DNA of 58,038 nucleotides from a virus. Its lineage: Duplodnaviria; Caudoviricetes. The DNA lies in the IMG/VR virus record IMGVR_UViG_3300023208_000007, positions 1 to 58,038 of that record; one strand, given 5' to 3'. Under the pieces are notes generated by a model. It had not been told where the DNA came from. It did not search any database and was given only the letters and a program-made list of their open reading frames with translations. This document shows positions 1-57,936 of the stretch, one piece after another; within the stretch, counting starts at the first letter, position 1, and each line of letters starts with the position of its first letter. Position numbers and translations under genes: made by a program.

Positions 1-179
1 GAAACTTTTCAAAAGTATTTGATTATTAATTATTTTAATTTTTTCAAAATGAAAAAGCTTAGAAATTATTAAATGTGGGTAAATAGTTGGAAAAATAAGT
101 GTACATACTGATCAAACAGTATATTATATCACCATACTGAATAACATTGAACAGTTACTCTAAATGATTTAGAGTTCTT

Positions 180-364
180 ATGGAAAGATTTCAGTATACA
201 ATTGTTGTGATCAGCTTGATCACGTCAAGGATGTTTTAAGTTAGTCTGATTACTCTTCACGGAAGAAAATGGAAGCAAATAAGTGTGCATAGATGCACAA
301 TGGACGCGCGTAAGTCAGTTCTAATGGACTAACCTTTCATTTACTTTTTTAGGAGACTTACGTC
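180..364 (+). promoter_or_regulatory. Long 5' leader with seven GGA motifs (putative CsrA/RsmA binding sites)
   Basis: ATGGA 180, AAGGA 227, ACGGA 259, ATGGA 269, 300 and 324, and AGGAG Shine-Dalgarno at 351; early-type promoter (TGTACA..TATTAT) at about 100-127. Confidence 0.5.
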
Positions 365-869: not shown

Positions 870-1412
870 ATGAAGAATTTTATTCTTTCCGCAGTACTTG
901 CTCTTGCAGTTCCTTCAGCTTTTGCTGATATTACGGCTACAGCAAGTCAAAATCAAAACGCAACTGCGTCTTCAGGTTCAAGTTCTGGGAATGCTTTCAA
1001 TCAGAGGTTCGATAGTCACGATTCAGTTCGTGGGTCTGATCTCAGCAGCGCTGTTCCTAACGCCATTGCTCCAAACCTTGCTACCACATTGACTGAAACC
1101 TGTATGGGTTCCACCAGCTTTGGTGCTTCTGGTTCTGGTTTCGGCTTCAGCTTCGGTACCACTTGGCGTGACAGCGCTTGCGTACGTCGTCTTGACGCTC
1201 GCCAGCTTTCTGCTTTTGGCGATCTTCCTACTGCTCGTGAAATGATGTGCGATAGTGACAAAGTTCGTGAAGCCGCTAAGCGTGCAGGTCGTCCTTGCGT
1301 AGCTGATGGCGGACAGCCTTGGGGTATTCCGGTTGCAGCAGCTCCTCAGGAACAAATCGTTCCTACCCCTGAAGCAGCAGCTCCTGTGGTAACTGAACAA
1401 GTTCGCGAATAA
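870..1412 (+). CDS. Secreted Cys-containing hypothetical protein
   Basis: GGAG SD before ATG 870; signal peptide ending AFA; TCMGSTSFG..GFSFGTTWRDSACVRRLDAR motif with 4 Cys. Confidence 0.8.
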   Translation: MKNFILSAVLALAVPSAFADITATASQNQNATASSGSSSGNAFNQRFDSHDSVRGSDLSSAVPNAIAPNLATTLTETCMGSTSFGASGSGFGFSFGTTWRDSACVRRLDARQLSAFGDLPTAREMMCDSDKVREAAKRAGRPCVADGGQPWGIPVAAAPQEQIVPTPEAAAPVVTEQVRE

Positions 1413-1413
1413 T

Positions 1414-1554
1414 ATCACGGACTGATAAATATAGCATAGGACGCTACAGGGACAAGATTGTTATGCTTTAGGAGAGACATGGAGAGTTGGTAAATGGATT
1501 ACGTCACGGATGAATAAGGGTTTAGTAACACGGATTTGTTGCTAAACCCTTTTT
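1414..1554 (+). ncRNA. CsrB/RsmY/RsmZ-like GGA-repeat small RNA (candidate)
   Basis: 8 GGA motifs in about 116 nt, several in hairpin loops, ending in an intrinsic terminator 1516-1554. Confidence 0.6.
1516..1554 (+). terminator. Rho-independent terminator
   Basis: aagggtttagtaaca / tgttgctaaaccctt stem followed by a T tract. Confidence 0.85.
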
Positions 1555-1574
1555 AGTAACTAACTTGGAGATTT

Positions 1575-2132
1575 ATGATGAAAAAGCTTTTTTTGATTCT
1601 ACCTGTTCTTATGACGTTCATTGGTTGTACTCCTAATATCAAAGATCGGGACTTTGAAAAGGAAGAAGCCGAATTTATCAAAACACATGGAGTTGCCGCA
1701 AAAGATCCATTTTACGCGCCACCTACACCTGATCACATTATGGCAGGTGAAAAGGATGATGTTAGGATCACAATTCACAAGGGATCACCAACGCTACATG
1801 ACGCTAATGATGTAGATCACAACAAAATTGAACTACAGAATTGGTATGCAGTATTGACCAATGATGGTAAAAAACCAGTTTGCGTAATGACTGAGTGGAA
1901 ACTCATGGACTTTGAAATGATTTCGGATTATCCTGGTTTCGTTTACATGAGCCCGCATTCGCAAATTATAACCTACGCCCATCTCAGACAGCAAATTTGG
2001 AACATCGATGGTACTAAATTCGCGTTACCTCCATCAGGTTACGTTGAAGATATGGACATTCGAGAACCGAATAAAAAGGCAAAATCTGGTGATGAATGTG
2101 TCTTTGAGGACGATGATATTGAGGAGCAATAA
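1575..2132 (+). CDS. Putative lipoprotein
   Basis: Signal peptide with lipobox-like FIGC; SD GGAG. Confidence 0.75.
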   Translation: MMKKLFLILPVLMTFIGCTPNIKDRDFEKEEAEFIKTHGVAAKDPFYAPPTPDHIMAGEKDDVRITIHKGSPTLHDANDVDHNKIELQNWYAVLTNDGKKPVCVMTEWKLMDFEMISDYPGFVYMSPHSQIITYAHLRQQIWNIDGTKFALPPSGYVEDMDIREPNKKAKSGDECVFEDDDIEEQ

Positions 2133-3731: not shown

Positions 3732-3801
3732 GCATTGACCTTCGATAAATAGAGCTGAAAGCAGTAAAAACTGCTTGTAAGCTTTATAATCGGAGGTTTA
3801 A

Positions 3802-4868: not shown

Positions 4869-7100
4869 ATGATTAGATTTAAAAAAATCATATTGGGAAC
4901 CGCTTTGTTCGTTGTTTCTCACTTAACGAGCGCAGCAGTTCTCATTATTCCTACCCCACTAAATACCGCCATTAAACCTCCAATGGAGGTTAAATTTGAT
5001 GGTGTGCTTCAACCTACCGGTATAAATTCAATAGTTGCAAATCAAGCGGCTTTAGTTCGACTTGGTAAAGCGTTATTTTGGGATACTCAAGTTGGATCTG
5101 ATGGAATGGCCTGCGCATCATGTCATTTTCACGCAGGTGCTGATAGCAGAAACGTAAATCAAATTAATCCTGGTTTAAATCATGCTGGCAATACTGTATT
5201 TGATCCATTCCCAACTGGTGCTAAAGGTCCAAATTCAACATTGACAGTGCGTGATTTTCCAATGTGGCAGTTTACTGGTGTTGATCCATTAAATCCACTT
5301 CGTCAAACTGCGCTAGTTATTGATGATGTTATTAGTTCTGCAGGAACATTTAACGGCGTTTTTGTTAATACCAGTGGTACTTCCGGTAATGACGTTTGTA
5401 CGCCAAGAGCGCCTGATTATGCAACAAAAGATAATCTAAACACGCGTTTTGTTGAACCACGTAATACTCCAACTACAATTGGCGCTGGATTCTTAGTTCG
5501 TAATTTCTGGGATGGTAGAGCTAATCGTGTATTTAATGGTGTAAATCCTTTTGGTTTACGTGATCCTAACGCGCGTGTTTTTAGAAACGTTGCTGGTGTT
5601 GTCGCTCCTGTTAAATTAGAAGTGAATAATGCTTCTACTGCATCTCAAGCAGTTGGTCCAGTGCTTTCAAATCTAGAAATGAGCTGTCAAAATAGAGCAT
5701 TTCTTGACGTAGCTGCTAAGATCGTTGCAGCTAAAGCGTTAGCAAATCAGAAGGTTTCTCAATCTGACAGCGTTTTAGCGTCTCTTGTAGCTGGGACCGC
5801 CAATCCAAATTTCCTTCGCGCTAACGTTACCTATCGTTCATTAATTCAAGCTGCATTTAAGCCAGAATTTTACACTGGAACAAATGCCCAAGGAATTCCT
5901 TTAGAACAATCAAACTTTGCAATGTACTTTGGTTTAGCTGTTGCTGCTTATGAGAATACATTAGTTGCTGGTAACAGTAAATTTGATACCATTCCAAGAA
6001 CAATCCAAAATGTTCTACCGGTTGGTGGTGCAATTCCTGTTCAAGCACCTCAGCCAATTCGTCTTCCAAGCGGTGTTTTTCGCGGTTTAACACGTAGCGA
6101 GTCACGTGGTCTTGATTTGTTCATGGGCGTAGTTTCAGCTCTAAATCCACAAGTTGGCGTTGATCCTATAACTGGCGCCCCAATTCCACAGAAAAATGGT
6201 CGCTGCATTCTTTGTCATAATGGTCCAGAATTTACAACTGCAACATTTACTGCTTTAGCTCCTGCTCCTGCCGGTGTAATTGTTCCTCCTGGTGCTATCG
6301 CTCCTGAGTTTATGGCTGAACCAATGCCTTTTGCTCCAGGTCTTGCTGGCGCAATTCCTGTTGATCCAATTGTTCCAGCGTTTGATCCAGCAGCTCAGTT
6401 TGGTACTTATGATCTTGGCTTCTATGATATCGGTGTAACACCGCTTGATTTCGATCATGGTCTAGGTGGAAATGACCCATGGAATAATCCGCTAGCGTTC
6501 GCTAAACAATGGGAAAATGCATTTAATGCAAATACTCCTTGCCCTGTTAGCCCTCTCGGTATCGTTGTAGGCGGAGCAGCTTGTACGCCTCCTACTACGT
6601 CTGATGTGTTCAACGTCAATATCAATTTTGTTGATGCAGTTGGTCTACCAGTTGTTATGACTCCAGCGCTTTCACCGGCAAAGACTGACGGTTCATTTAA
6701 GACACCATCTCTAAGAAACGTTGCTTTAACTGCACCGTATTTCCATAACGGTTCAGCAAAAACCCTTGAAGAAGCTCTTCAAGTTTATAATAATGGCGGG
6801 TTGTTTATTAATCCAAATCATCACCCAGAAATTATACCACTTGCATTTGATACAACAGATATTACTGACGTTGCTAATTTCTTGAGAACTCTTACTGACA
6901 ATCGTGTTACTCTTGAGCGCGCCCCATTTGACCATCCTGAGTTGTTGCTTCCAAACGGCCACAAAACGGATGTTAATGGAATATTAATAGGTGCTATTGG
7001 ACAACTAAATGCGACTGATAACATCGTTAAAATTACTGCAACTGGCAGACTTGGACGTACAAGAGCATTACCTAACTTCGAACAGACGTTAGCTCCGTAA
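4869..7100 (+). CDS. Di-heme cytochrome c peroxidase (bCcP/MauG superfamily), secreted
   Basis: Signal peptide; [48 protein letters not shown] motifs; TATAAATA at 4747. Confidence 0.9.
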
Positions 7101-8044: not shown

Positions 8045-8386
8045 ATGTCAGATTTTCAAAAATTATTAGACGCAATTAAAGATCAAAAGGTTCGTCTTGA
8101 TTTCAATGTAAAGCAGATTGAAGAACAAGTTGTAACTGGTGCCAAAGCCGCTGGAACAGCTGTCGTGAATGCGGGTTATGAGGTAGGTAATAAAGCTGGT
8201 GAAGTTTACGATCAGGTTAAACCAGTTGTTGTTGAAGCAGCTCAAGCTGTTGCAGCAAAGGTTGAGGAAGTTGTGGCTGAAGTTAAACCAGTTGTTGTTG
8301 AAGTAGTTGAAGATGTTAAGGAAGCCGTAACAAATACTGTTGACGCTGTTGAACAAAAAATTGACGAACTTACTAAAAAAGATTAA
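8045..8386 (+). CDS. Low-complexity Val/Glu/Ala helical protein
   Basis: SD GGAG; repeated VKPVVVE; GATAAATA upstream. Confidence 0.65.
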   Translation: MSDFQKLLDAIKDQKVRLDFNVKQIEEQVVTGAKAAGTAVVNAGYEVGNKAGEVYDQVKPVVVEAAQAVAAKVEEVVAEVKPVVVEVVEDVKEAVTNTVDAVEQKIDELTKKD

Positions 8387-14233: not shown

Positions 14234-16036
14234 ATGGCGAAAAAAATATGGGAATGGTTTTTACGTAACTTGCTTTTAATTAGTTTATCAATTTTATTGA
14301 TTGTGGGAGCGTATTCAATCATCAATAGAACACAAACTCATGATGAGCCGACACTGTCTTATTATAACTTTATTCAGGCAGTGCACACCGGCTCTGTATT
14401 TAATGCCATCATTCAGAGTAATGAAATTCATGGAATGTTAAAATCTGGTACTGAGTTTAAAACACTTGCACCAGATAATGACACGCATTTGATTGATGAT
14501 TTATTTAGGTACAATGTTGATTTTCGAGTAATTCCACCTGAAAAACAAAGCATTGGAATGGCAATTTTTATTAGCTGGTTCCCGATGCTTATCTTGATTG
14601 GTGTGTGGATTTACTTTATGCGACGTCAAGCTGGCAGCGGCCCGCTGGGCTTCGGTAAAAATAAAGCAAAGTTAGTTGCTGAGGACAAGGTAAAGATTAC
14701 ATTTGCTGATGTCGCTGGCGTTGAAGATGCTAAAGCGGACGTTAAGGAAATGGTTGATTTTTTACGTGATCCTAAAAAGTTCAACAAGCTTGGTGGTAAA
14801 ATTCCACGTGGAGCTCTGTTAGTTGGGCCACCTGGAACTGGTAAGACAATGCTCGCCCGCGCTGTTGCTGGCGAAGCTGGAGTCCCATTTTTTACTCTTT
14901 CAGGTTCTGACTTTGTAGAAATGTTTGTTGGTGTTGGTGCCTCTCGCGTTCGCGATCTATTCGAGGAAGCAAAAAAGAAGGCACCTTGCATTATTTTCAT
15001 TGACGAAATTGACGCAATTGGTGCCTCTCGTGGACAAGCTATAATGGGAAATGATGAGCGCAATCAAACTTTGAACCAGCTACTTGTTGAAATGGATGGC
15101 TTTGAAGGTACTGAAGGAATTATCGTTTTTGCTGCAACTAATAGAGCTGAAATTCTTGATCAAGCTTTACTACGTCCTGGTCGCTTTGACCGACAAGTAT
15201 TTGTAAATCTACCGGATATTATTGGTCGCGAACAAATTTTGCGGGTTCATACTCAAGCAATTCCGCTAAATGATGATGTTGATTTGCTTGCAATAGCTCG
15301 TGGAACACCTGGTTTTTCTGGCGCTGACCTAGCAAATCTTGTGAATGAAGCTGCTATTCTTGCTTCAAAATGTGATCGTGATGTTATTTCAATGCGTCAC
15401 TTTGAAAAAGCAAAAGACAAAATCATGATGGGCGCCGAGCGTAAATCGCTAATGATGACTGATGATGAAAAGCGTCTTACTGCCTATCATGAAGCTGGTC
15501 ACGCGGTTGTTGGATTTTTTACTCCTGAGCATGATCCACTTTATAAAGTTAGTATCATCCCGCGCGGTAGAGCCTTAGGTATTACTATGTTCCTACCCGA
15601 ACATGATAGAGTTTCAATGTCAAAGCGTAAGGTTGAAGGTCAAATTGCAAGCTTGTATGGTGGTCGAATTGCTGAGGAAATTATTGCTGGGCCAGACGGT
15701 ATTACAACTGGAGCTTCGAATGACATCGAGCGAGCTACAGTTCTCGCAACTAAGATGGTAACTGAGTGGGGCTTTAGTGAAAAGCTTAAGTTGCTTAAGT
15801 ATATTGATCAAGACCATTCATCAATGTCAAATTCAACTCACATTGCCACTGGTCTTGAGGATGATGAAGATCGAAGAATTATCAAGGAAGAAATAGAGTC
15901 AATATCACAGCGCAACTATGATAGAGCACGTAACATTATTGAAAACAACTGGTCTAAAATGGAAGCAATTGCTGAAGCACTGATAAAATTTGAGACAATT
16001 GATATTAAACAAGTCGAAGAAATAATGGCAGCATAA
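14234..16036 (+). CDS. ftsH: ATP-dependent zinc metalloprotease FtsH
   Basis: Two TM segments, [30 protein letters not shown]. Confidence 0.97.
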
Positions 16037-32698: not shown

Positions 32699-32961
32699 CA
32701 TTGTACAAATATGAGAGGCCAATTTACAATATCACTTCTTAACTAATGCTGATTAGAGATACTTAGATGAAAAATTGGAACTGGCCTCTCATTGCAATTC
32801 TTGCTCTCACTGTTTTCTTTTGGATTGGGTTTATCAACTTTTGGGGGTTAACTGCGGCAATAATAACTGCGTTAGTTGGTGGTTGTATCACAATTCTTAT
32901 TTTTAAATACTCTGTTGATTACTAAGCATTTTGCTAAAATGCAAATAACGTTGGAGAAATT

Positions 32962-34008
32962 ATGTTGATAAAATATTTTAAATCAAGTTTCATTTTTACT
33001 GCGCTAGCCATCTGCCTTGGTTTTTTCATTGCAGGTTGGAAAGGAGCTCTTATCTGTCTCATCTTGGGTATTCTTGAAGTTTCACTTTCGTTTGACAACG
33101 CAGTCGTCAACGCGAAGGTTCTTGATACCATGACAGCTGAGTGGCGTCATCGCTTCATTACTTGGGGTATCGCGATAGCAGTATTTGGTATGCGATTGAT
33201 ATTTCCTCTTTTGATTGTTGGTGTAACCGCGAGTTTGTCACCTGTTGAAGTAATTCAGCTTGCTGTTGCAAAGCCTCAGGAATATCAACATCACCTTGAA
33301 GGAGCTCATGTTGAAATTATGGGTTTTGGCGGAACGTTCCTCTTCATGGTTTTTTGGAAGTATTTTGTTGATGAAACCAAGGATGTTCACTGGCTTGCTT
33401 TCATTGAACGACCACTTACAAAGCTTGGTAAAATTGAGGCGGTCCAAGTTGCCTTGACCTTGCTAGCTGTTTACATTACTACTAAGTTCTTGCCAGTTGA
33501 AAGCGTTATCTCATTCTGGGTAGCTTCAGTATTTGGCTTGATTACATACATCGCAGCAGATGGTGTCGGTGCAATTCTTGGCGGTGAAGAAGATGAGGAT
33601 AACGTGGTAGGCAAAACTATTCAGCGTGCCGGTCTTGCATCTTTCTTGTATCTTGAACTTCTGGACGCAAGTTTCTCATTTGACGGTGTGGTCGGCGCAT
33701 TTGCGCTAAGTGATAATATCTTTATCATTGCGATTGGACTTGGTATTGGCGCAATGTTTGTACGATCATTAACGTTGATGTTGGTTGATCTTGGTACGCT
33801 CTCTGAGTATCGCTATCTTGAACACGGGGCCTTCTGGGCTATCGGAACACTAGCAGTAATTATGTATTATAATACTGTGTCTGAAATACCTGAGGTAGTC
33901 ACTGGGTTGATTGGCGCGGCTCTTATTATACTTGCCTTGATATCATCAATCATTGTCAACAAATTTGAAACTAAAGATGAAGAGGAAGAAGAATTTCACA
34001 CAATTTAA
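32962..34008 (+). CDS. TerC-like integral membrane protein (DUF475)
   Basis: LEVSLSFDNAVVNA, GMRL.FP, YLELLDASFSFDGVVGAFA, YLEHGA. Confidence 0.9.
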   Translation: MLIKYFKSSFIFTALAICLGFFIAGWKGALICLILGILEVSLSFDNAVVNAKVLDTMTAEWRHRFITWGIAIAVFGMRLIFPLLIVGVTASLSPVEVIQLAVAKPQEYQHHLEGAHVEIMGFGGTFLFMVFWKYFVDETKDVHWLAFIERPLTKLGKIEAVQVALTLLAVYITTKFLPVESVISFWVASVFGLITYIAADGVGAILGGEEDEDNVVGKTIQRAGLASFLYLELLDASFSFDGVVGAFALSDNIFIIAIGLGIGAMFVRSLTLMLVDLGTLSEYRYLEHGAFWAIGTLAVIMYYNTVSEIPEVVTGLIGAALIILALISSIIVNKFETKDEEEEEFHTI

Positions 34009-57859: not shown

Positions 57860-57936
57860 GCCTCATTAGCTCAGTGGTTAGAGCGGGTGACTCTAAATCT
57901 CCGTCAGCACAGGTTCGAATCCTGTATGAGGCACCA
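57860..57936 (+). tRNA. Amber suppressor tRNA (CUA anticodon)
   Basis: gcctcat/atgaggc; ggtga-ctctaaa-tctcc; canonical D and T arms; A73 and encoded CCA. Confidence 0.85.

Follow-up and report, generated by a model that had tools for sequence, protein, structure and literature searches.

A GGA-rich spacer with a late-promoter-like motif and an intrinsic terminator in a large lake phage is a candidate decoy RNA for CsrA/RsmA-type proteins

In many bacteria, carbon storage, biofilm formation, motility, and virulence are under the control of CsrA/RsmA, whose activity cells tune by decoy RNAs. RsmX, RsmY, and RsmZ are RNAs of ca. 110–130 nucleotides (nt) with 5–8 GGA/ANGGA motifs and a terminal terminator. 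CsrB and CsrC of Escherichia coli are 369 and 246 nt long, respectively. Exposure of ANGGA in short hairpins is the principle given for RsmX/Y/Z in passages of two reports (PMC7366521, PMC8545117). Here, we analyzed the 58,038-base DNA of a virus (IMG/VR virus record IMGVR_UViG_3300023208_000007), hereafter the window, which is the complete record and an estimated 25% of a genome. Its spacer at 1413–1574 (162 nt) sits between a secreted-protein gene (870–1412) and a predicted lipoprotein gene (1575–2132), and it is a candidate source of an RNA of 122–146 nt, the size class of RsmX/RsmY/RsmZ.

Judged by its sequence, the candidate looks like the Csr/Rsm decoy RNAs and is a member of none of their families. 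With CsrB and CsrC (6.0 and 5.7 GGA per 100 nt) the spacer shares the GGA density, few or no TCC, and a terminator at the 3′ end. Unlike them, it is carried by a phage behind a late-type promoter motif, has no UvrY/GacA-type box nearby, and matches no Rfam family. The upstream activating palindrome of the Gac/BarA-UvrY systems is TGTAAG-N6-CTTACA; with up to three mismatches, the window contains 27 matches to it versus 31.7 expected, none of them near 1424 or anywhere between 636 and 11013. RsmX/RsmY/RsmZ of Pseudomonas and its relatives carry their GGA on stable stem-loops, whereas the body of the candidate is essentially unstructured and shows neither sequence nor structure homology to them.

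An earlier note, written from the letters of the window, had proposed a phage-encoded CsrA/RsmA sponge-like small RNA (sRNA) at 1414–1554 with eight GGA motifs, six of them in the form ANGGA. Both counts proved exact: GGA starts at 1419, 1439, 1450, 1471, 1481, 1496, 1508, and 1532, and ANGGA at 1417, 1448, 1479, 1494, 1506, and 1530. The + strand holds 706 GGA in total, i.e., 1.7 per 141 nt, and eight per 141 nt were reached on this strand in two places only, the spacer and a coding stretch near 36.4 kb. Among the spacers of the window, as delimited by a crude gene call, this one is the most GGA-dense, with 5.6 per 100 nt versus a mean of 1.45. TCC does not occur in 1413–1574. In 5000 shuffles of 1414–1554, the chance of eight GGA was P = 0.022 with dinucleotides kept and P = 0.002 with base counts kept, and that of six ANGGA was P = 0.001.

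The flanks of the GGA are more informative than their count. C at −3 and A at −2 precede 8 of the 16 GGA in the spacer and in the leader of the nearby gene 365 taken together, while the rate among all 706 + strand GGA would give ca. 7%. The window has 60 copies of CANGGA on its + strand and 24 on its − strand; five copies fall within 1416–1534 and form the sole cluster of at least three per 150 nt on either strand. When searched as a pattern of three CANGGA with gaps of 3–30 nt, the window gave three matches, all overlapping within 1416–1534. No three-CANGGA cluster was found on either strand of 43 AT-rich related loci (135 kb), a set from which the window's own locus, 50 pattern-selected loci, bacterial and E. 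coli loci, loci with >45% GC, and duplicates had been excluded. The same pattern had one match in six related viral records (563 kb), in a stretch that looks coding, and six matches in five named large phages (1.18 Mb) versus three in the reversed control, the one examined match lying inside a coding sequence. The CANGGA cluster is real and unusual, although it came out of a very large scan and may still be a product of chance.

Two promoter-like classes recur in the window. The first consists of TGTAC(A/T)T followed after ca. 15 nt by a TATAAT-like hexamer and has at least 12 copies; on the + strand it gave 15 matches, nine of which end 22–49 nt before the next start codon preceded by a Shine-Dalgarno (SD) sequence. 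The second, NATAAATA, includes GATAAATA at 1424–1431. The late-like motif that the earlier note had reported at 1424 is thus a member of a motif class recurring in the genome, and GATAAATA variants also lie upstream of the genes at 8045, 11888, 12910, and 37038. ATAAATA is present in 26 copies on the + strand and nine on the − strand; spacers, which make up 11% of the window, hold 17 of the 26, and seven copies stand 28–33 nt ahead of a start codon. The existence of two classes suggests an early and a late transcription programme like that of T4-type phages. The GATAAATA class is validated as a motif within this genome, and its firing as a promoter is predicted from the sequence; by the T4 late-promoter rule, transcription would start near 1437.

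The predicted intrinsic terminator downstream folds at −20 kcal/mol (z = −3.95; 0 of 200 shuffles fold as well). It lies 84 nt from the motif at 1424–1431, so a late transcript would hold the complete terminator and should end there. Elsewhere in the window, NATAAATA motifs at 3745, 7118, 16732, 34691, and 52921 follow stop codons, and a hairpin of −14.9 to −21.3 kcal/mol begins 1–2 nt after each. At those five copies a late start ca. 6 nt downstream would fall inside the 5′ arm of the hairpin, and late transcripts could in this way escape a terminator that halts earlier ones.

Our best reading of the spacer, which we put forward tentatively, is a lineage-specific RNA of ca. 120 nt, or a 3′ untranslated region (UTR), that would bind a CsrA/RsmA-type protein. 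We rank it first because it alone covers together the CANGGA bias, the CsrB/CsrC-like density, the complete strand bias, and a unit of promoter and terminator free of open reading frames (ORFs). The element would be a small non-coding transcription unit of one phage lineage, in which the late-type promoter GATAAATA and the strong intrinsic terminator enclose an unstructured, C-poor RNA body of ca. 85 nt. The + strand of 1413–1574 contains no ORF of at least 30 amino acids, and the 84 nt of 1432–1515 include 10 C. An RNA from this unit would be ca. 120 nt long and carry seven GGA. When transcribed as part of the upstream early operon, the spacer would also form a 145-nt 3′ UTR with eight GGA, and the data are equally compatible with the alternative already named in the earlier note, a 3′ UTR-derived element of that operon. 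Such an RNA would offer many CANGGA, binding motifs of the CsrA/RsmA type, at the density of CsrB/CsrC; most likely it would bind the CsrA-family regulator of the host and act as a decoy late in infection. We infer each of these steps, namely promoter firing, accumulation of a discrete RNA, a CsrA in the host, CsrA binding, and titration.

Several results weigh against the decoy reading, beginning with the way in which the sites would be presented. CsrB and CsrC of E. coli were run as positive controls with the same ensemble sampling. The mean probabilities of a GGA being unpaired and being in a hairpin loop were 0.69 and 0.46 for CsrB, 0.42 and 0.24 for CsrC, and 0.36–0.37 and 0.22–0.31 for the candidate RNA (5.5–5.7 GGA per 100 nt). 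By these modelled measures of accessibility and by density, the candidate is similar to CsrC, a point in favour of the decoy, but does not reach the values of CsrB. A hairpin-loop probability above 0.5 was found for one of seven GGA when 1437–1558 was folded and for two of eight with 1413–1558, versus 11 of 22 in CsrB. The body showed no more structure than its shuffles, with z = −0.20 for 1413–1515 (equalled or surpassed by 74 of 200 shuffles) and z = −0.13 for 1437–1515 (by 91 of 200). Three small hairpins drawn in the earlier note around individual GGA can indeed be drawn, but alone they reach 0 to −2.4 kcal/mol, which is marginal, and in the sampled ensembles of 1413–1558 the hairpin-loop probabilities of their GGA were 0.04 (1419), 0.70 (1439), and 0.00 (1508). 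On the other hand, the GGA placed in the terminator loop was found there with a hairpin-loop probability of 1.00.

The individual sites give a mixed picture. A CsrA consensus obtained by systematic evolution of ligands by exponential enrichment (SELEX), RUACARGGAUGU, is described in passages of PMC4347634 together with an ACA/UGU stem holding the GGA in its loop. Against this 12-mer, the eight sites in order scored 5, 6, 8, 5, 7, 8, 7, and 8 of 12, and none reached 9. The mean over all GGA of the window was 6.0, and a score of 8 was reached by three of the eight sites versus 11.6% of all 706 GGA. The terminator-loop site takes the form described: in the context ACA-CGGAUU-UGU, ACA and UGU are paired and the GGA at 1532 is in the loop.

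Homology searches give no help to the decoy reading either. Kinship with CsrB, RsmY, or RsmZ, which the earlier note had proposed to check, was not borne out by the Rfam covariance search: no Csr/Rsm family (CsrB, CsrC, RsmX, RsmY, PrrB/RsmZ, and relatives) matched, and at gathering score the window gave only transfer RNAs (tRNAs), 20 in number. With E values up to 10 allowed on 1300–1700, five chance-level matches appeared, none to a Csr/Rsm family. Relatives of the locus were collected through the upstream protein and comprised 28 viral loci and, from 80 metagenome loci returned, 33 that were examined and 29 that were informative; four of the 33 had <40 nt after the stop codon. A GGA-rich spacer followed the orthologous gene in 0 of the 57 informative loci (28 viral and 29 metagenome), with 0–5 GGA in the next 170–200 nt, and there was no CANGGA in any of the 29 metagenome loci, the only set in which it was counted. 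Usually just a terminator follows the orthologous gene, and in several loci a lipoprotein-like gene comes next. The closest syntenic relative, which shares 58% and 39% identity with the window in its two flanking proteins, has a 53-nt spacer with a terminator only. Even in the best relatives the flanking protein is only 58–68% identical, so the element may just be of recent origin. The downstream lipoprotein led to one viral locus and no metagenome locus. The element is, as far as these comparisons reach, an orphan of one phage lineage, and therefore there is neither comparative support nor covariation for it.

Direct searches for copies of the element gave a similar picture. An exact 23-nt piece of it had no match in viral contigs. 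A two-motif pattern found 50 stretches in viral contigs, which is about chance by a rough estimate of the collection size, and most of them appear to encode T-D-E repeats. One of the 50, at 500–730 of an unrelated viral contig, consists of CACGGATG repeats that lie in both directions immediately downstream of a primase-like ORF; they probably act at the DNA level as protein-binding sites, for example iterons or operators, rather than as an RNA element. The possibility of a captured host sRNA was rejected after the 162-nt spacer was compared with 400 scored genomes belonging to the same class as one genome that carries FtsH. All matches were short and at chance level; the strongest spans 22 identical bases and scores 41 bits, with E = 1.5e-4 per genome.

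Population data and the host complete the points of doubt. The first 3.5 kb of the window is present in nine DNA sequencing runs from lake water, and no RNA is among the listed sequencing runs carrying the region. Contigs from four lake runs are identical over 1–2400 with zero differences, and because variation is nil, selection is unreadable from them. No phage in the reference collection resembles the window at the DNA level. As for the host, the FtsH-like protease of the phage has its 80 best genomic matches at 57–62% identity, and the titles of these matches name Gammaproteobacteria except for one Salibacteraceae metagenome-assembled genome and two entries labelled only "Proteobacteria". 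In favour of the decoy, csrA was present in four of the five genomes searched among the FtsH-matching Gammaproteobacteria, and these matches would suggest a gammaproteobacterial host carrying CsrA. Other proteins of the window are nearest to those of phages of Caulobacter (53%), Xanthomonas (39–43%), Aeromonas (34%), and Ralstonia (42–52%); compared with named phages, the proteins of the window match a mixture from Alpha-, Beta-, and Gammaproteobacteria, cyanobacteria, and Actinobacteria at 24–53% identity. With nearest phages of such varied hosts, the host may lack csrA. No CsrA-family gene was found in the window, i.e., in the estimated 25% of the genome that it covers.

Of the sponge claim as a whole, the GGA density, the CANGGA flanks, the C-poor composition without TCC, the promoter motif with its terminator, and the lack of an ORF stood, but Rfam homology was absent, hairpin presentation was weak, SELEX scores were at most 8 of 12, and conservation was not found.

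The lack of conservation and of structure makes it equally probable that the spacer is incidental. Only the terminator, which would end the upstream early operon, would then be functional; the purine-rich 100 nt would be drifting, perhaps with start codons and ribosome-binding sites left over from small genes since lost, and GATAAATA would be a chance or unused copy. Neither the 57 informative loci nor the syntenic relative conserve the element, the body folds like shuffled sequence, and the GGA excess is just P = 0.022 once dinucleotides are kept. In addition, two GGA form part of an SD-like GGAGAG with an ATG after it, and nine of the 26 + strand copies of ATAAATA lie outside the counted spacers. 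Because the element was picked out of a very large scan, a chance cluster of such strength is expected somewhere. On the other hand, five CANGGA in 120 nt are unique in the window and absent from the 135 kb of related loci, 1.7 Mb of DNA from other phages yielded few three-motif clusters, and the strand bias is complete with zero TCC. An incidental origin would also have to explain why this spacer, which is short in relatives, has gained ca. 100 bases although 88% of the genome is coding.

A further reading makes the RNA a target of CsrA rather than a decoy. CsrA or a similar protein would bind the GGA at 1532 and the SD GGA at 1567, with the upstream sites helping, and either repress translation of the lipoprotein gene at 1575 or alter read-through at the terminator. 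Some mRNA leaders are bound by CsrA at multiple positions (pgaA and glgC type), and others also serve as decoys for CsrA (fim of Salmonella). Like these, the candidate has multiple GGA sites, including one within the SD of the gene that follows; unlike them, it has a strong terminator between the sites and the gene. The absence of any promoter-like motif between the terminator and the start of gene 1575 means that this gene must be reached through the terminator, which speaks for a cis-acting role, as do an SD that is itself a GGA, 35 nt from the loop GGA, and the nearby gene 365 with its 231-nt leader of seven GGA, one of them in the SD. However, a −20 kcal/mol terminator inside a leader would abort most transcripts, the arrangement is not conserved, and known repressed leaders need fewer than eight sites at CsrB-like density. 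Repression by CsrA of a lysis-lipoprotein gene on an extrachromosomal element, cel of ColE7, has been reported (PMC2896534) and offers a precedent. On balance, we regard such a cis-acting leader as improbable.

The leader of gene 365 (Table 1) may be related to the spacer. Six of its GGA are ANGGA, and shuffles gave P = 0.0002 or less for its motif content; its site at 229 matches the SELEX consensus in 9 of 12 positions, and in predicted folds its GGA are mostly paired. Its length stands apart from the other 14 + strand matches to the early-type promoter, nine of which end 22–49 nt before the next SD-preceded start codon. Taking both regions together, one can imagine a T4-like lytic lake phage in which a late decoy of ca. 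120 nt soaks up CsrA/RsmA, and the neighbouring early operon with its GGA-rich 231-nt leader belongs to the same circuit, being held by CsrA early and released by the decoy late; we consider this extended scenario rather unlikely. At 32702–32962, another early-type promoter leaves a leader of ca. 231 nt ahead of a TerC/DUF475 membrane-protein gene, with no Rfam match.

About as improbable as the cis-acting leader is that the RNA serves some other factor, as an Hfq-dependent base-pairing sRNA or through GGAG/GGAU sites cleaved by a RegB-like phage endoribonuclease. The U-tailed terminator and the single-stranded, purine-rich body are in keeping with sRNAs of the Hfq class, and the spacer holds three GGAG and three GGAT. 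The phage has T4-like traits, namely TATAAATA-type motifs, a CCA-adding enzyme, and nicotinamide adenine dinucleotide-salvage genes. However, no gene of the RegB (PF10715) or RegA family was found in the window, an estimated 25% of the genome. Pairing of the RNA to translation-initiation regions was no better than that of shuffled sequence, with 93% of 60 shuffles equal or better in a crude comparison covering targets in the window only, and CA-N-GGA flanks are not known from RegB or Hfq sites. That phages and prophages do encode sRNAs is on record in passages of PMC13501541.

Least probable is a translation-coupled attenuator resembling the pyrBI leader, in which ribosomes on two mini-ORFs would stop over the 5′ arm of the terminator, block the hairpin, and let transcription enter gene 1575. 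In its favour, MESW and MDYVTDE start 4 and 9 nt after GGAG, within the range of the SD spacings of genes 365, 870, and 1575, and abut at TAA-ATG, the stop codon of the second covers the first two bases of the terminator stem, and gene 1575 has no promoter of its own. Against it, codons of a regulatory kind form no pattern in these 4- and 7-codon ORFs, and ATGGA is just a version of the ANGGA motif that recurs here, accounting for 6 of the 16 GGA of both regions. Folding without the 3′ arm revealed no alternative anti-terminator pairing, and the arrangement is not conserved.

Table 1 Positions of the features in and around the GGA-rich spacer of the window.
Feature	Position	Strand	Description
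Gene-365 leader, possibly related	134..364	+	231 nt behind an early-type promoter (TGTACAT 100–106, TATTAT 122–127)
Upstream gene	870..1412	+	Secreted protein, phrog_20531 (PHROG E = 8e-24); signal-peptide-like N-terminus; stop TAA 1410–1412
GGA-rich, C-poor, weakly structured body	1413..1515	+	7 GGA; 4 CANGGA (1416, 1447, 1478, 1505)
Late-promoter-like motif GATAAATA	1424..1431	+	Class enriched 6-fold in spacers
Two abutting mini-ORFs	1479..1493, 1494..1517	+	MESW and MDYVTDE, each with its stop codon; joined TAA-ATG
Predicted intrinsic terminator	1516..1556	+	Stems 1516–1530 and 1537–1551 (15 base pairs), loop CGGATT 1531–1536, T run
SD of gene 1575	1565..1571	+	TTGGAGA; ninth GGA (1567), 35 nt past the terminator-loop GGA
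Downstream gene	1575..2132	+	Predicted lipoprotein; signal peptide ends in a Cys lipobox

The protein of the upstream gene had no Pfam or NCBIfam match, and its nearest Atlas clusters are viral hypothetical proteins. The protein of the downstream gene had no match in Pfam, NCBIfam, or PHROG, and Atlas gave it no informative name. The two genes within 365–1412 have 53% GC versus 38% for the genome, appear by eye to be rich in GCT, GGT, and TCT codons, and both encode signal-peptide proteins without any family name.

The window has 38% GC and is 88% coding under the standard code, with 82 of its 93 crudely called genes on the + strand. It contains 20 tRNA genes (Rfam at gathering score and ARAGORN) and also encodes the FtsH-like protease, GroES, a CCA-adding enzyme, an RNA ligase, TelA, TerC/DUF475, a cytidylyltransferase-NUDIX protein, nicotinamide phosphoribosyltransferase, and adenylosuccinate synthetase. 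From this content we read the window as an accessory region of a large lytic phage. One of the 20 tRNAs, at 57860–57936 with anticodon CTA, is an amber suppressor labelled tRNA-Pyl by ARAGORN; TAG remains the stop codon in eight of the 93 crudely called genes. Two genes are unusual cargo for a phage: a full-length FtsH at 14234–16036, and a 743-amino-acid di-haem cytochrome c peroxidase/MauG-like protein at 4869–7100, for which no relatives were found in genome contigs.

Mobile elements are already linked to the CsrA network and to RNA sponging. In passages of PMC7366521, csrA alleles are reported in 30 of 2517 phage genomes. Phages and plasmids that carry csrA supply the protein, whereas the candidate would supply an RNA antagonist; both would touch the CsrA network. 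Anti-sRNAs encoded by prophages of enterohaemorrhagic E. coli sponge host sRNAs, according to passages of PMC13501541. Those sponges base-pair with host sRNAs, whereas the ligand proposed for the candidate is a protein. Our literature searches brought up no report of a phage-encoded CsrA-sponge RNA, which is not proof that none is in print.

If the RNA does not bind CsrA, the spacer would illustrate that GGA counting alone yields convincing look-alikes in purine-rich spacers. If it binds CsrA, the virus would reprogramme host translation through the host's own antagonist mechanism, and a late promoter followed by a CANGGA cluster and a terminator would become a search image for viral metagenomes. 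The decoy, if true, would be the first case of a virus using an RNA to sponge up an RNA-binding protein of bacteria.

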